DNA from: a virus
Taxonomy: Duplodnaviria; Heunggongvirae; Uroviricota; Caudoviricetes
Virus record (IMG/VR): IMGVR_UViG_2548877009_000019
DNA length: 5,037 nt
Direction: 5' to 3' (one strand)
Shown here: positions 1-3,911 of the stretch, piece by piece
Layout: each line of letters begins with the position of its first letter
How positions within the stretch are numbered: position 1 is the first letter of the stretch
The notes under the pieces: generated by a model
The model's input: the letters and a program-made list of their open reading frames with translations, nothing else
The model's database searches: none
What the model was told of the DNA's origin: nothing
Translations under genes and position numbers: made by a program

Positions 1-1230
1 ATGAGCAGAGCACTTAACAAACTGAGCGATACACAGCTGAGGAAAATCAACGGCACACCCGCCCAAAAAACAGCCTTTCTTAATGACGGTGGAAACCTGA
101 GCGTCAGGCATTCAACCAGTGGCCTTTTAACCTGGTATTTCACTTACAGGGCCGGAACGGGAAGGGGGGCACCACCGGAACGCATTAAGCTGGGAAATTA
201 TCCTGATCTGAGCCTGAAATCAGCCAGGGAAAAAGCCGCCCAGTGTCGCGCATGGCTGGCAGAGGGGAAAAATCCACGTCATGAAATGAATTACACCGTA
301 CAGGAAGCGTTAAAGCCGGTAACGGTTGGCGATGCGCTCACCTACTGGCTTGAGTCGTACGCAAAGGAAAACCGTGTGGATTATGACCCACTGAAAAAGC
401 GGCTAAATAATCACGTAATACAGCACATTGGCCCTATGCCGCTGGATAAATGCGAGCTACGGCACTGGCTGGCCTGTTTTGATCGGGTGGCAAAGAAAGT
501 CCCTGTTTCCGCCGGGTTCCTGCTACAGACATGCAAGCAGGCGCTTAAGTTTTGCAGGAAGCGGCGCTATGCAATCAGCAACGTTCTTGATGATATGAGT
601 GTGGCGGACGTTGGGAAAAAACCGGATATAAGTGAGCGTGTCTTAAGTAACAAAGAACTTGGCGAATTATTGCAGGCACTGGACAAAAAAATATTTTCCC
701 CTTACTACGTCGCACTAATCCGCCTCCTGATTGTTTTCGGATGCCGGACAGTAGAACTGAGGTTATCGGAGATCGGCGAGTGGGATTTTACCGAAATGCT
801 CTGGACCGTTCCGAAGGAGCACAGCAAAACGAAGGTAGCCATATTCCGGCCCATACCGGAAGCGATACTGCCGTTCGTCACGCAGCTGGTGGAGCAGAAC
901 AGGCACACGGGCTTATTGCTGGGGGAAGTGAAACAGGAAACCAGCGTATCGCAGTACGGCAGATTGGTGCACAGGAGGCTTAAACACCCTCACTGGTCAC
1001 TGCATGACATCCGGCGCACCTTTACAACCATGCTGAACGATTTAGGCGTTGATCCTCACGTCGTGGAGCAGCTTACAGGCCACCAGATGCCAGGAATGCA
1101 ACGCGTGTACAACCATTCCCGCTATATTGATGCGAAACGCAATGCGCTTGATATGTGGGTGGAGCGGTTGGAGATACTGGCGGGAACACATGAAAACGTA
1201 ACCACGCTACCAGTAACCAGAATAAAATAA
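1..1230 (+). CDS. int: Tyrosine-type site-specific integrase, P4-like phage integrase family
   Basis: 409-aa ORF starting at the first base of the window. C-terminal region carries the tyrosine-recombinase signature (LHDIRRTF, then HQMPGMQRVYNHSRY with a candidate catalytic Tyr). Size and N-terminal arm-binding-like region fit P4-type integrases. Internal ORFs on other frames (705-908 minus, 741-983 plus) are overlapping artefacts. Confidence 0.9.
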   Translation: MSRALNKLSDTQLRKINGTPAQKTAFLNDGGNLSVRHSTSGLLTWYFTYRAGTGRGAPPERIKLGNYPDLSLKSAREKAAQCRAWLAEGKNPRHEMNYTVQEALKPVTVGDALTYWLESYAKENRVDYDPLKKRLNNHVIQHIGPMPLDKCELRHWLACFDRVAKKVPVSAGFLLQTCKQALKFCRKRRYAISNVLDDMSVADVGKKPDISERVLSNKELGELLQALDKKIFSPYYVALIRLLIVFGCRTVELRLSEIGEWDFTEMLWTVPKEHSKTKVAIFRPIPEAILPFVTQLVEQNRHTGLLLGEVKQETSVSQYGRLVHRRLKHPHWSLHDIRRTFTTMLNDLGVDPHVVEQLTGHQMPGMQRVYNHSRYIDAKRNALDMWVERLEILAGTHENVTTLPVTRIK

Positions 1231-1604: not shown

Positions 1605-1793
1605 GTGTTAAGCACTGATCGGTTTATACGTGAAAAAGAATGCGAAAAGCTAACAGGCCTTAGCCGCTCATGCCGCTACCGCCTGGAAAAGGCCGGACAA
1701 TTCCCATCACGTCGTAAACTTGGTGGGCGTTCTGTTGGCTGGTCTTTATCTGAGGTTTTGGCCTGGAAGGATAGCTGCAAGGCAGTTCACTAA
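1605..1793 (+). CDS. alpA: AlpA-family phage regulatory protein (small DNA-binding transcriptional regulator)
   Basis: 62 codons from a GTG start at 1605, preceded by AGGGGG (1594-1599) with a 5-nt spacer. The translation contains the AlpA-type pattern (TGLSRS..YRL...G.FP...KLG.RSVGW..SEV..W). Sits immediately after int in the same orientation, as is typical. Confidence 0.85.
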   Translation: MLSTDRFIREKECEKLTGLSRSCRYRLEKAGQFPSRRKLGGRSVGWSLSEVLAWKDSCKAVH

Positions 1794-1934
1794 AAAGACT
1801 GGCGGCACACAGTCGCCACACATCCACTAATACAGAGATATAACTATGAAGATTGAATATGCGCCCGAACGTGGGCGGGGATTCGTTCGCCCTGGTGAAA
1901 CTGAAAAACAACAAAATTGGGGTTTTTCAGGCAT

Positions 1935-1962
1935 AAAAAAAGCGGCCCCGATATGGAGCCGC
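1935..1962 (-). terminator. Minus-strand intrinsic terminator downstream of the 2037-2240 minus-strand sORF
   Basis: Hairpin GCGGCCCC / GGAGCCGC (1942-1949 and 1955-1962; 8-bp stem with one mismatch, 5-nt loop GATAT). On the minus strand it is followed by seven U (complement of A-run 1935-1941). On the plus strand only a weak CTTTCT follows. Confidence 0.5.
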
Positions 1963-2036
1963 CTTTCTGAACAATTAACCTGCTGCGCCTTATGTGTATG
2001 TGATCCCAAACATAAGCACGGGAATGATAGCCGCTA

Positions 2037-2240
2037 TCAGGCTGGTGGGCAATTACCTTGCTTGTTGGGGCCGTATTGTGCTGCCATTTTCATCCGTTCA
2101 GAACGTGAATATTTTTTTAGAAACTCATCAAGGACAAAAGCGCATGGAGCGAATCTTTCTGATTCATGCTCGAGCGCCATATTTTCGTGCTCTCTGTTCG
2201 TTTTTTGCGATGGTGTATTGGTTGATTCTTTATTGGTCAT
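2037..2240 (-). CDS. Hypothetical small protein (67 aa, starts MTN); paralogous in position and 5' sequence to the 2698-2925 ORF
   Basis: Minus-strand ORF whose start is preceded by the conserved 45-bp leader repeat. Shares ATGACCAA and CACCAATACA with the 2698-2925 ORF at the DNA level. Has a downstream minus-strand terminator. The Shine-Dalgarno is weak (AGG about 9 nt upstream), so translation is uncertain. Confidence 0.3.
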   Translation of the reverse strand: MTNKESTNTPSQKTNREHENMALEHESERFAPCAFVLDEFLKKYSRSERMKMAAQYGPNKQGNCPPA

Positions 2241-2248
2241 TGTGTGTA

Positions 2249-2293
2249 CCTGTAAAGCAATGCGCCGGAGTTCCTCACGCCACGGCGCTGATG
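2249..2293. repeat. 45-bp repeat, copy A (CCTGTAAAGCAATGCGCCGGAGTTCCTCACGCCACGGCGCTGATG), forming the leader of the 2037-2240 sORF
   Basis: Matches copy B at 2934-2979 with 2 mismatches over 45 bp. On the minus strand it contains an inverted repeat GCGCCG-N15-CGGCGC. Flanking homology extends about 50 bp to the right (ATTCTTTGG...). Confidence 0.8.
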
Positions 2294-2297
2294 TTTT

Positions 2298-2402
2298 TTA
2301 TTCTTTGGGTTCAATACCGCGTTGCTGTAATTCTTTTCGGATTATTCGTTTTATCCAAGCTGCTAAAGAGTCATCACCGTCTTGTTGTTGTGCTTTTTCC
2401 AT
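2298..2402 (-). pseudogene. Possible truncated/diverged paralog (34 codons) of the 2983-3162 small basic protein
   Basis: Hand translation of the minus strand gives MEKAQQQDGDDSLAAWIKRIIRKELQQRGIEPKE. Its 3' end and the following DNA are homologous to the 3' end of the 2983-3162 gene (...CCCAAAGAATAA versus ...ACCAAAGAATCAGAATAA). The N-terminal two-thirds is missing. Confidence 0.25.
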
Positions 2403-2470
2403 CTTTTCCCGTAAGTCAGGATCTAAACGGAACTGGAAAGGAGGATTACCACGCCTTTCATTTTTGTGTG

Positions 2471-2498
2471 TTGACATGTCAATTACACCCCATATAAT
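2471..2498 (+). promoter_or_regulatory. Near-consensus sigma70 promoter (TTGACA, 16-bp spacer, TATAAT), plus strand
   Basis: TTGACA at 2471-2476 and TATAAT at 2493-2498, read directly. A perfect 12-bp palindrome GTGTATATACAC lies just downstream at 2507-2518 (candidate operator). Predicted start site near 2505. Confidence 0.6.
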
Positions 2499-2530
2499 GT
2501 GTTTATGTGTATATACACATTACACACAAC

Positions 2531-2577
2531 TAGCACAAAAAACAACGCCCCGCAGTGATGGGAACACATACGGGGCG
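2531..2577 (-). terminator. Minus-strand intrinsic terminator for the minus-strand sORF operon; same hairpin as module copy 1
   Basis: Stem CGCCCCG / CGGGGCG (2546-2552 and 2571-2577) with 18-nt loop. On the minus strand it is followed by UUGUUUUUUGUG (complement of 2531-2545). Confidence 0.5.
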
Positions 2578-2611
2578 TCTAACCAAACCATTAATTGAGG
2601 TAACGATTATG
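2545..2611 (+). repeat. Leader module copy 1: GC-stem hairpin (18-nt loop), TCTAACCAA, Shine-Dalgarno GAGGT, ATG (2609)
   Basis: Aligns with copy 2 (3291-3356) and, in architecture, with copy 3 (3658-3725). The ORF that starts here (MAIKEHSLLFIHTQT...) matches the P2/P3 N-termini only to HTQT and then diverges, so it looks like a degenerate copy. Confidence 0.6.
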
Positions 2612-2655
2612 GCTATAAAAGAGCATAGCTTACTCTTTATACACACACAAACGCC

Positions 2656-2695
2656 CCGGAAACGGAATAATCCGTTTCATAGTTCGGTTTTGTGT
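2656..2695 (+). terminator. Weak plus-strand terminator-like hairpin ending the short transcript from the 2471-2498 promoter
   Basis: Inner stem GAAACGGA / TCCGTTTC (2659-2666 and 2671-2678, loop ATAA), outer CCG/CGG closure, then UUUUGUGU (2688-2695). The U-run is separated from the main stem by an internal loop. Confidence 0.3.
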
Positions 2696-2697
2696 AC

Positions 2698-2925
2698 TCA
2701 TCCTGGCGGGCGATTCTTACGGGACTTTAGCCGCCGTGGGCAGCTTGCTAAAAATGCCTCCAACGCGAATAGTCCAGGTTTCATTTCTATCGGTATTAGT
2801 TGGATATTCAGAGGATTAGCCAGTTCGGCTTCAAGGCGAGCACAGGTTTCTAACTGCCTTTGCCGAATGATTTCATCTTCTTGCGTCTGCGTGTCTTGTA
2901 TTGGTGATAGTGTGTTGTTGGTCAT
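2698..2925 (-). CDS. Hypothetical small protein (75 aa, starts MTN)
   Basis: Minus-strand ORF immediately downstream of the 2983-3162 gene, separated from it by the 45-bp repeat copy B. Followed on the minus strand by the 2531-2577 terminator. Paralogous start to the 2037-2240 ORF. Weak Shine-Dalgarno. Confidence 0.35.
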   Translation of the reverse strand: MTNNTLSPIQDTQTQEDEIIRQRQLETCARLEAELANPLNIQLIPIEMKPGLFALEAFLASCPRRLKSRKNRPPG

Positions 2926-2933
2926 GGTACTGC

Positions 2934-2979
2934 CCTGTAAAGCAATGCGCCGTAGTACCTCACGCCACGGCGCTGATGG
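2934..2979. repeat. 45-bp repeat, copy B, in the 57-bp spacer between the 2983-3162 and 2698-2925 minus-strand genes
   Basis: Matches copy A (2249-2293) with 2 mismatches. Forms GCGCCG-N15-CGGCGC on the minus strand. Confidence 0.8.
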
Positions 2980-2982
2980 TGA

Positions 2983-3162
2983 TTATTCTGATTCTTTGGT
3001 CTTGCGGCGCTGGCGGCGTTTGATTTCGCCGCGCATGGCTGCGTTTATAAACTGCCCCGTGCTTTCACCTTCTTCTTTCACGTTCTCCATGCCTTCAATA
3101 ATTTCATGGGCAATACGTGCAGTTACAGATTGTGATTTTGCATTCTTTGGACCCGTTGCCAT
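2983..3162 (-). CDS. Small basic protein (59 aa, MATGPKNAKSQSVTARIAHEIIEGMENVKEEGESTGQFINAAMRGEIKRRQRRKTKESE); candidate regulator
   Basis: Start placed at the internal ATG (plus 3160-3162) because it has a strong Shine-Dalgarno GAGGGG with 6-nt spacer; the longer track ORF to 3201 has none. Divergent from the plus-strand operon across an operator-like region. Lys/Arg-rich C-terminal tail. Regulatory role is inference. Confidence 0.55.
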   Translation of the reverse strand: MATGPKNAKSQSVTARIAHEIIEGMENVKEEGESTGQFINAAMRGEIKRRQRRKTKESE

Positions 3163-3182
3163 GTTTAACCCCTCATGTTTTT

Positions 3183-3264
3183 GGTGTAAGACAATATACA
3201 CGAAAAAAAAATATTTTGAAGGGTTGACGTGTAAGACACCGTTATTTTACATTGTGTCTTACAC
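3183..3264. promoter_or_regulatory. Divergent promoter/operator region with GTGT-N3-ACAC palindromic motifs
   Basis: GTGTAAGACA (3184-3193), GTGTAAGACAC (3229-3239) and its exact inverted copy GTGTCTTACAC (3254-3264). A -35-like TTGACG at 3224-3229 overlaps the second motif; the -10 is poor (TTACAT/TACATT). Confidence 0.5.
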
Positions 3265-3290
3265 CTTGTTAATGCAAGGTACAGAAAAGA

Positions 3291-3356
3291 CGAAACCCCG
3301 CAGTGCTGGAACACATACGGGCTTCTAACCAACAACGTAAACTAGGAGCCGTTATG
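3291..3356 (+). repeat. Leader module copy 2: hairpin AACCCCG / CGGGCTT (17-nt loop), CTAACCAA, Shine-Dalgarno AGGAG, ATG (3354)
   Basis: About 90% identical to copy 1 over roughly 40 bp. Outer stem positions differ from copy 1 in a way that keeps pairing (A-U pairs replacing G-C pairs) with one internal mismatch. Confidence 0.7.
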
Positions 3357-3537
3357 GTTGCTGTAAATCATATACCACACCTTGTACACACACAAACTGC
3401 CTTTGTGTGGCGTTTTCTGGCACTGAATATCGGAGAAAAAAACCAGTTGATCGCCAGTGTCGAAAATAGCTATGATTCCCGCGCACCTCATAAAACGGGT
3501 GCCGGGATTGGCGTCCTGGGCAAAACTGAAGCGCATA
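3354..3537 (+). other. P3-paralogous short ORF (MVAVNHIPHLVHTQTAFVWRF...) with no in-frame stop before the 3538-3560 terminator; leader peptide or decayed paralog
   Basis: Good Shine-Dalgarno (AGGAG). N-terminal roughly 30 codons are paralogous to the 3723-3911 ORF with several synonymous differences. The frame runs without a stop through the terminator to 3911, so the 202-aa track ORF is unlikely to be one real protein. Confidence 0.3.
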
Positions 3538-3560
3538 ACACGCGCCCCGCGTGTTTTTTT
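3538..3560 (+). terminator. Strong Rho-independent terminator (ACACGCG-CCC-CGCGTGT followed by a T-run)
   Basis: Perfect 7-bp GC-rich stem (3538-3544 and 3548-3554), 3-nt loop, T-tract through 3560. Plus-strand specific. Lies inside the 3303-3911 track ORF and upstream of the small-ORF operon. Confidence 0.75.
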
Positions 3561-3657
3561 GTGCCGCATAGTCACACCTTATCAATGGTGGGCTGTACGG
3601 GGGCGGAGCAATCCGCGCCGGTTTCTTCAGTGTCCGGTTACGCCAACCCTGTACAGT

Positions 3658-3725
3658 CCGCCACCAGCGAAATTGGCGTTTCCGGTGGCGGTTATCTTAA
3701 CCACACTGAGGAGGCTGCCAACATG
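3658..3725 (+). repeat. Leader module copy 3: hairpin CCGCCACC / GGTGGCGG (18-nt loop), TCTTAACCAC, Shine-Dalgarno GAGGAGG, ATG (3723)
   Basis: Perfect 8-bp stem at 3658-3665 and 3684-3691. Same architecture and spacing as copies 1 and 2 but with a completely different stem sequence. Confidence 0.6.
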
Positions 3726-3911
3726 GCTACTATCCCTACCCTTGTACATTCTCAAACCGCCTTTCTCTGGCGCTTTATCATCTTTGGCGCGTCAGAACAT
3801 CAAATCATCCACGTAACCGCCTGGACGGAACGCGAAGCGCGTAGCCGTTGCCCGTCAGGTTGTGTTGCTGTATTTGCCGCCCGTATTCGTCAGGAGGTGC
3901 GCCATGATTAA
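3723..3911 (+). CDS. Hypothetical small protein (62 aa, MATIPTLVHSQTAFLWRF...); first gene of the small-ORF operon
   Basis: Strong Shine-Dalgarno GAGGAGG (3708-3714) with 8-nt spacer. Stop overlaps the next start (ATGATTAA). Paralogous N-terminus to the 3354 ORF with synonymous third-position differences. Confidence 0.6.
   Translation: MATIPTLVHSQTAFLWRFIIFGASEHQIIHVTAWTEREARSRCPSGCVAVFAARIRQEVRHD

Follow-up and report, generated by a model that had tools for sequence, protein, structure and literature searches.

Why should a short non-coding sequence stay almost constant when the genes on either side of it do not? The question is raised by a 5,037-nucleotide stretch of DNA (IMG/VR virus record IMGVR_UViG_2548877009_000019; hereafter the window, meaning the whole stretch) whose minus strand carries two nearly identical copies of a 45-nucleotide sequence (the 45-mer, or the element), each placed between a gene for a ribbon-helix-helix (RHH) type protein and a small open reading frame (ORF; sORF). 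An initial annotation of the window had described the repeat as a hairpin-forming leader of the two sORFs. By its gene content the window belongs to a phage satellite, and satellites of the phage-inducible chromosomal island (PICI) and P4-like kinds, found in about one third of complete Escherichia coli genomes, influence phage spread, gene transfer and virulence; the regulatory zone that follows alpA in such satellites, where the repeat lies, is poorly understood. The answer tentatively placed first here, with somewhat less than even confidence, is that the 45-mer may be a cis-acting RNA stem-loop, working as a leaky intrinsic terminator and 3' stabiliser and so determining how much RHH product is made relative to sORF product. 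A hairpin of this sort would by itself be an ordinary kind of cis-element; it marks a previously unremarked two-gene leftward operon, made of an RHH regulator and a small protein with a FALE motif, and its stem, loop and tail provide a precise handle for dissecting that operon.

A Constant Spacer Between Divergent Genes

Between alpA and the isrK-like and C4 RNA genes, the minus strand of the window holds two tandem modules, each consisting of an RHH gene, a copy of the 45-mer and a small ORF, in that order. Module A is made of ORF59, copy 1 and ORF67, and module B of a YlcI/YnfO-type gene, copy 2 and ORF75 (Table 1); the upstream RHH cistron had gone unmentioned in the initial annotation. The two copies are identical at 43 of 45 positions (95.6%) over 2249-2293 and 2934-2978, in line with the figure of about 96% given earlier, and only the end of the second copy, placed at 2979, has to be moved back by one base. 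A repeat search extends the similarity to 75 nt, aligning 2230-2304 with 2915-2989 at 84% identity (family D1). The hairpin that had been proposed, GCGCCG-N15-CGGCGC, is present in both copies, that is, two matches where 0.02 would be expected, and none of 200 shuffles gave two; on the minus strand it ends 21 nt from the ATG of ORF67 (2240) and likewise 21 nt from that of ORF75 (2925), close to the 20 nt estimated before.

The placement of the element is as regular as its sequence. On the minus strand, 4 nt separate the stop codon of the RHH gene from the start of the 45-mer in both modules, the stem begins about 9 nt after that stop codon, and 8 nt separate the end of the 45-mer from the ATG of the sORF. 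Exactly 57 nt separate the RHH stop codon from the sORF ATG, which share a frame; this holds for the two copies and for all related loci seen, the spacer being free of insertions and deletions.

The genes around this spacer have diverged. Among 98 distinct segments selected by protein, mean pairwise identity is 0.835 within the element and about 0.52 in its flanks, so the claim that the non-coding sequence is better conserved than the coding sequence holds well beyond the window. Modules A and B give no meaningful alignment outside the 45-mer and one other short island; ORF67 and ORF75 match by BLASTP at E = 0.30 only and their upstream RHH partners, ORF59 and the YlcI-type protein, do not align, and the spacer is thus far better conserved than the genes that surround it. 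The two sORFs are divergent, as had been stated, but they are not unrelated, since both belong to small-protein families that share the motif (ERFAPC)AFALExFL.

A Single Gene Context Across Genomes

The same junction recurs widely. A 60-nt query matched 1664 of 5426 complete E. coli genomes at 2717 places in total, with one to seven places per genome and almost all of them chromosomal; in every E. coli locus that was opened, int and alpA are followed, on the opposite strand, by a YlcI/YnfO-type gene and the element, and all inspected loci, together with all listed annotated rows, are of satellites and have the element beside YlcI/YnfO-type or sORF genes. A phage collection of 50,697 records contained no match to the 60-mer, and the YlcI protein was likewise unmatched there. 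More than 100 satellite instances came from a pattern scan of IMG/VR, whose other matches were chance occurrences in GC-rich DNA. On viral contigs, an ORF ends no more than 25 nt upstream of the element in 112 of 113 instances, and an ORF of at least 30 aa starts no more than 60 nt downstream in 97 of the 113. The downstream ORFs are diverse, most of them sharing the (ERFAPC)AFALExFL motif. Loci with two tandem modules, like the window, are rare (5/111), and in a minority of loci (L006 type) YlcI and the element are followed by about 300 nt that lack an ORF.

Loci were also collected by way of the flanking proteins, which avoids selection on the element itself. It was present in all 67 loci selected only by their sORF protein, and in 57 of 79 usable loci selected only by YlcI; each of these 57 has a same-strand ORF after the element, while the 22 loci lacking it have a different downstream context. 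A scan of genome contigs by YlcI alignment gave four further loci (in Escherichia ruysiae, Dryocola, Citrobacter and Edwardsiella), none of which has the element, and it is also absent from the K-12 genes ylcI and ynfO. Because its context is constant, and because it is missing from four YlcI homologues of other genera and from K-12 ylcI and ynfO, the 45-mer is not a generic repeat and belongs to the junction of RHH gene and sORF.

A REP/BIME or other dispersed repeat, or a fragment of an insertion sequence, is set aside on the same grounds, the 2717 places lying, wherever they were inspected, in one satellite context. The 45-mer shares with REP/BIME sequences the form of a GC-rich imperfect palindrome after a stop codon and the high number of copies per species, but it was found only beside satellite YlcI/Arc-like genes instead of being scattered over unrelated intergenic regions, and it is unrelated in sequence to the REP consensus. 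The designation as a leader of the sORFs fares less well. The element does lie directly upstream of both sORFs, yet the term is too narrow: the 45-mer is tied at least as tightly to the 3' end of the RHH gene, it persists without an ORF in loci of the L006 type, and, as discussed below, it is also a recombination joint and is crossed by a nearly stop-free frame on the opposite strand.

Fold, Strand Preference and a Candidate Leaky Terminator

The commonest variants of the element fold as GCGCCGUGGUG-UGAGG-UACUACGGCGC, an 11-bp stem closed by a 5-nt loop (-19.3 kcal/mol, z = -3.1). Pairing was assessed by explicit pair counts over 38 distinct variants in place of an RNAalifold consensus. On the minus-sense RNA, pairing is kept in 91.3% of stem cells; the figure falls to 79.7% for the plus sense and to 23-56% in slid controls in which the partner was moved by one to three columns. 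The median hairpin energy is -14.6 kcal/mol in the sense direction versus -11.7 antisense. Substitutions within the stem lean the same way, G·U cells numbering 55 and A·C cells 11: the internal ones are C-to-U transitions, after which pairing is kept on the minus-sense RNA alone (L005, L084, L136, L138, L220), and a divergent second copy in locus L275 has replaced a G-C pair by A-U and a G·U pair by G-C. This strand-biased pattern is suggestive of pairing in a minus-sense RNA, without being decisive.

The minus strand is also the one on which the element looks most like a terminator, and the emphasis that had been placed on that strand is thus borne out by both folding and form. The stem has AUUGCUUU or AUUGCUAU as its tail on the operon strand, and a simple scan calls the commonest variants terminator-like, with 12 pairs, a loop of 3-5 nt and the tails ATTGCTTTAC and ATTGTTTTAA. 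At least four T in the eight nucleotides of the tail are found in 56 of 66 contexts in the sense direction and in 13 of 66 on the other strand; at least five are found in 38 of the 66 sense contexts, and the tail of the window copies, ATTGCTTT, has 5 T in 8.

A mechanism can be proposed on this basis. The RHH regulator, the stem-loop and the small ORF would form a two-gene leftward operon transcribed from the minus strand in the regulatory zone of the satellite, and the stem with its U-rich tail AUUGCUUU would act as a leaky factor-independent terminator. Part of the transcripts would stop at the stem, leaving a short RHH messenger with a protective hairpin at its 3' end, and the remainder would read through into the small ORF, such that the element would set the ratio of the two products, a ratio that presumably matters. 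Being conserved between alleles that are otherwise unrelated, the 45-mer also serves as a homologous joint for swapping RHH and sORF modules. The sequence of the element, its constant placement, conservation, capacity to fold, terminator-like shape and strand preference are shown; its transcription within this operon and its action on RNA ends or stability are proposed.

Several observations weigh against this proposal and keep it tentative. The U-tract is interrupted by GC, the most abundant variant (AUUGCUAU, ATTGCTAT) reaches only four U in eight, and the tails of a few divergent variants have one to three. The sORF has no room for a promoter of its own, and any termination must thus be partial. 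The hairpins of the window are themselves weak, with stems of 6-9 bp, loops of 9-15 nt and energies of -13.7 and -16.4 kcal/mol (z = -0.6 and -1.8); both copies have a C at position 18, and copy 1 additionally a U·C mismatch in the inner stem. Folding of their 60-nt contexts is only moderate (-14.2 kcal/mol, z = -0.7, for copy 1 and -21.4, z = -2.2, for copy 2), and the scan that calls the commonest variants does not call the window copies terminator-like, because their loops exceed its limit. RNAalifold on the 38 variants returned a trivial 4-pair helix instead of the hairpin. Covariation is not significant, since shuffles pair in 91.0% of cells, 124 of 500 reach the observed value and only two cells show a double change. 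A sequence-specific recognition site, or homogenisation by recombination, could account just as well for such high conservation accompanied by few compensatory changes. The earlier description of an intercistronic RNA element is thus sound as to position, the 45-mer being non-coding and lying between two cistrons of a minus-strand operon; its function as RNA is putative.

The stem-loop is most likely of a familiar kind, and this particular element apparently had not been described before. A cmscan of the window against Rfam (E <= 1) reported only C4, isrK, BSnc120 and c4-a1b1, with nothing at 2249-2293 or 2934-2978, and no description of the element was found in the literature on capsid-forming PICIs, YlcI/YnfO and isrK/C4 in satellites. 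Leaky terminators and intercistronic stem-loops, such as the REP-stabilised malE-malF junction and the attenuators that follow the first gene of phage early operons, likewise place a GC-rich stem-loop with a U-rich tail after the stop codon of a first cistron, and may stand in a regulatory operon of a mobile element whose downstream gene is expressed only by read-through; the 45-mer differs from them in being a specific, highly conserved unit of 35-45 nt restricted to one gene junction of E. coli phage satellites and in its interrupted U-tract.

Alternative Readings of the Element

The same structural and positional evidence would also suit a sense-strand hairpin that acts post-transcriptionally and not as a terminator, which is possible but unlikely. 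Such a hairpin could be a block to 3'-to-5' exonucleases once the AU-rich tail has been cut (at GC|AUU, which would suit the preference of RNase E), a 5' stabiliser or insulator for the ribosome-binding site of the sORF, or a ribosome standby site presenting a Shine-Dalgarno-like loop (UGAGG or UAAGG). The loop retains G19, A22 and G23, reads UGAGG, UAAGG or UGAGU in most variants and stands before an sORF whose own Shine-Dalgarno sequence is weak (CAGG); the U-poor tails of some variants, a difficulty for termination, are none for processing. On the other hand, the loop motif varies (GCGGUGA, UUGAGGA, AGAGU), it lies about 32 nt from the AUG, too distant for normal initiation, and loci of the L006 type have no ORF after the element.

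Somewhat more doubtful is the view that the conservation reflects exchange of modules (RHH, sORF or eta/Bro segments) and not function, the 45-mer being a recombination linker that repeated exchange would keep uniform. Exchange has left its mark: 48 pairings are seen among 23 upstream and 26 downstream classes, all four combinations exist for nine allele quartets, and more such quartets are seen between each flank and the loop variant. Recombination therefore occurs within or beside the element. The modules of the window, unrelated outside two short islands, fit this picture, as does the report that the regulatory zone of Gram-negative PICIs is dynamic and swaps domains (PMC10111431). What a linker leaves unexplained is the GC-rich palindrome, the strand-biased substitutions, the fixed spacing to stop codon and ATG, and the absence of the element where the YlcI-type gene has no downstream partner. 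A linker and a functional stem-loop are mutually compatible.

It is improbable that the inverted repeat is instead a site in double-stranded DNA, bound as an operator or roadblock by a dimeric protein (AlpA or an RHH protein, for example) of the satellite, the helper phage or the host. Dimeric proteins typically bind half-sites separated by two helical turns, and the 21-bp separation in the 45-mer would place both arms on one face of the helix. Variation affects 9 of the 15 spacer positions but hardly touches the six-base arms, and very high conservation with little covariation is what a recognition site would show. Against this, the promoter regions, the expected place for an RHH operator, contain no other GCGCCG/CGGCGC pairs; the stem variants GUGCCG/CGGUGC and GCGCUG/UGGCGC break the DNA palindrome and preserve RNA pairing on one strand; and the flanks are asymmetric, CA...AUUGCU being conserved on one side only.

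A Proposed Operon Nested Antisense in an Eta-Like Frame

The favoured leftward operon, with its candidate terminator, lies opposite a long plus-strand frame. Nearly free of stop codons and made of three overlapping ORFs in the window, this frame runs antisense through both modules into an Icd-like domain. In 96 distinct loci the open stretch that spans the element is 179-653 codons long (median 332), and 2.4 stops occur per 844 nt around the element in the open frame versus 15-19 in the other two plus-strand frames; the depletion of stops reaches into the divergent promoter region. Across 42 distinct YlcI alleles (mean nucleotide identity 71%), the open antisense frame has no stop at all, whereas the two other antisense frames have 118 and 126. 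It runs on, in many loci, across the rightward promoter and the isrK/C4 region, where it matches Pfam Phage_ASH, into the Icd-like domain.

By analogy, this frame is best read as an eta/Ash-like ORF of the P4 eta type. In P4, eta is a long ORF with the constitutive promoter, seqA and CI inside it; its translation is coupled to that of the alpA homologue and, starting from transcripts of an upstream promoter, prevents immunity-dependent termination (PMC10111431). The likeness to the P4 eta/kil region with its RNA immunity (CI, seqA, timm) extends to a regulatory zone placed after an alpA homologue and to a long ORF (Pfam Phage_ASH) with an internal constitutive promoter and C4/isrK-type RNAs; the difference is that the P4 scheme has no 45-mer, whereas here a leftward RHH-hairpin-sORF operon is nested antisense. 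That operon is best read as lying inside the eta-like ORF, the third codon positions being common to both strands, an arrangement of which no description was found in the literature consulted on satellites. Such an architecture, a repressor-type operon antisense within a stop-free eta-like frame, may matter more than the hairpin itself and suggests how islands might switch between silence and helper-induced expression.

Whether the element serves this frame bears on its reading. A palindrome used on both strands, attenuating the leftward RHH-sORF messenger and melted by rightward translation and transcription that would silence the repressor operon, is a more novel though improbable scheme; if true, satellite induction would be decided by a convergent switch of which the element forms part, and the element would also be the joint by which immunity modules are exchanged. 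A role on the plus strand alone, in which the hairpin on the rightward alpA-side transcript would pause or block RNA polymerase or ribosomes within the eta-like frame or terminate untranslated transcripts, is the least probable of the readings considered. The nearly stop-free frame crosses the element in 96 of 96 distinct loci, the P4 precedent just described offers a model, and the hairpin of copy 1 is followed, 5 nt on, by TTTTTTATTCTTT. The plus-strand hairpin is nevertheless the weaker one, as the median energies and pairing counts given above show, its G·U pairs being lost, and its tail, being the coding end of the RHH gene, is rich in T in no more than 9-13 of 66 contexts. The peptide encoded in the plus frame is ruled out as the cause of the conservation, as variable sites show no third-position bias in that frame.

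The Pfam Phage_ASH match in the window (3471-3752, plus strand, E = 6e-17) and a RefSeq pseudogene annotated as 'ash family protein' fall on the genes for the isrK-like and C4 RNAs; part at least of the 'Ash protein' family is thus translated RNA-immunity sequence.

Candidates Set Aside

The remaining candidates can be dismissed briefly. The element is not a target of C4/CI immunity RNA, to which it offers only a 6-nt match (UGGCGU to ACGCCA); neither C4 nor isrK reaches gathering score in 13 of 20 element-bearing loci, one or the other being present in the remaining seven, and the isrK-like and C4 RNAs are context only. A lambda-type nut site has a boxA consensus beside a short boxB stem with a GNRA-like pentaloop, whereas the element has a 10-11-bp stem with a UGAGG loop and a boxA-like UGCUUUA that is partial and reads UGCUAUG in the most abundant variant. 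A linker fusing RHH protein and sORF by stop-codon read-through is set aside, the GUGAGUAAC and CCGUGAUG variants carrying an in-frame TAA or TGA, and the stem is too short for an RNase III site. The immI region of P22 likewise has a small RHH repressor gene (arc), a short intercistronic region and a second gene (ant); a sar-like antisense RNA as in immI is unsupported because the 5' region of the sORFs has no opposite-strand promoter, no promoter-like site being found on the plus strand at 2180-2260 or 2870-2940.

Gene Map of the Window

The window is 99.9% identical to part of the E. coli chromosome NZ_AP027254, where its counterpart is the left end of an island inserted beside roxA. The first genes of that island encode an integrase (int), an AlpA-family regulator, a RepA helicase, a single-stranded DNA-binding protein (SSB) and PerC; these are followed by genes for a major capsid protein, prohead protease, portal, head-closure and connector proteins, an HNH protein and the small and large terminase. 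Such gene content is that of capsid-forming PICIs (10.1101/2022.09.08.507074), and on this evidence the window is the left end of a capsid-forming PICI in E. coli.

Table 1. Features of the window, in order of position.
Feature	Position	Strand	Evidence or remark
int	1-1230	+	
alpA	1605-1793	+	Pfam Phage_AlpA, E = 5e-18
Eta/Ash-like open frame, nearly stop-free	1846-3911	+	Three overlapping ORFs: 1846-2598, 2555-3328, 3303-3911
GC-rich hairpin, GCGGCCCC-GATAT-GGAGCCGC	1942-1962	.	Read from sequence; seven T after it on the minus strand
ORF67 (MTNKESTN...ERFAPCAFVLDEFLKKY), downstream cistron of module A	2037-2240	-	PHROG 21027, E = 2e-12; family variants
45-mer, copy 1	2249-2293	-	GCGCCG/CGGCGC arms span 2262-2288; between ORF59 and ORF67
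ORF59, Arc-like RHH, upstream cistron of module A	2298-2477	-	PHROG 228 Arc-like repressor, E = 1.5e-6
Rightward sigma-70 promoter, perfect consensus TTGACA-16-TATAAT	2471-2498	+	-35 hexamer overlaps the ORF59 start codon
ORF75 (MTNNTLSP...LFALEAFLASCPRRLK), downstream cistron of module B	2698-2925	-	Conserved 75-aa family in other loci
45-mer, copy 2	2934-2978	-	Hairpin 2947-2973; between YlcI/YnfO-type gene and ORF75
YlcI/YnfO-family small protein, 59 aa (MATGPK...), upstream cistron of module B	2983-3162	-	NCBIfam NF041551, E = 5.5e-18; RefSeq annotation
Module B counterpart of the rightward promoter	3224-3253	+	9/12
Promoter-like TTAACA-17-TAAAAT, upstream of the YlcI-type gene	3244-3272	-	10/12
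isrK-like RNA	3483-3559	+	Rfam cmscan; rightward operon, RNA immunity
C4 RNA	3581-3668	+	Rfam cmscan; rightward operon, RNA immunity
Icd-like ORF		+	

Among the four small proteins of the modules, for which PADLOC gave no credible defence-system match, ORF59 is labelled a hypothetical protein in RefSeq and ORF75 is unannotated in the RefSeq entry of the identical genome. The ORF75 family comprises about ten sequence variants in other satellites, each exactly 75 aa long and with the conserved C-terminus FALE.F...PRRLK..KNRPPG.

The hairpin between the convergent alpA and ORF67 is likely to be the end of the leftward operon. It is bidirectional, terminator-like and stronger than the hairpin of the 45-mer; a simple promoter and terminator scan of the window left it unflagged. 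At the other side of module A, transcripts from the consensus rightward promoter would, in a two-module island such as this one, cross ORF75, copy 2 and the YlcI gene in antisense.

A second island common to both modules lies on the plus strand at 2534-2586 and 3282-3332, with a hairpin CCCCGCAGTG(A/C)TGG(G)AACACATACGGGG followed by CTAACC. In each module this island (CCCCGCAGTG...ACGGGG) lies some 40-50 nt past the rightward promoter, within the 5' leader of the ash/icd operon, and the frame breaks between the plus-strand ORFs of the window fall within it. An Icd-like N-terminal motif occurs three times on the plus strand, at 2609-2660, 3354-3416 and 3724-3776 (MAIKEHSLLFIHTQT, ...HIPHLVHTQTAFVWRF and MATIPTLVHSQTAFLWRF); two of these copies align at 76% identity over 46 nt (repeat D2), and the first is a truncated remnant belonging to module A. 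Lastly, a perfect 12-bp palindrome, AAAGGCATAAAA/TTTTATGCCTTT, is located at 1417-1445 on the plus strand between int and alpA, and gives a weak, sub-threshold match to the Rfam family BSnc120.

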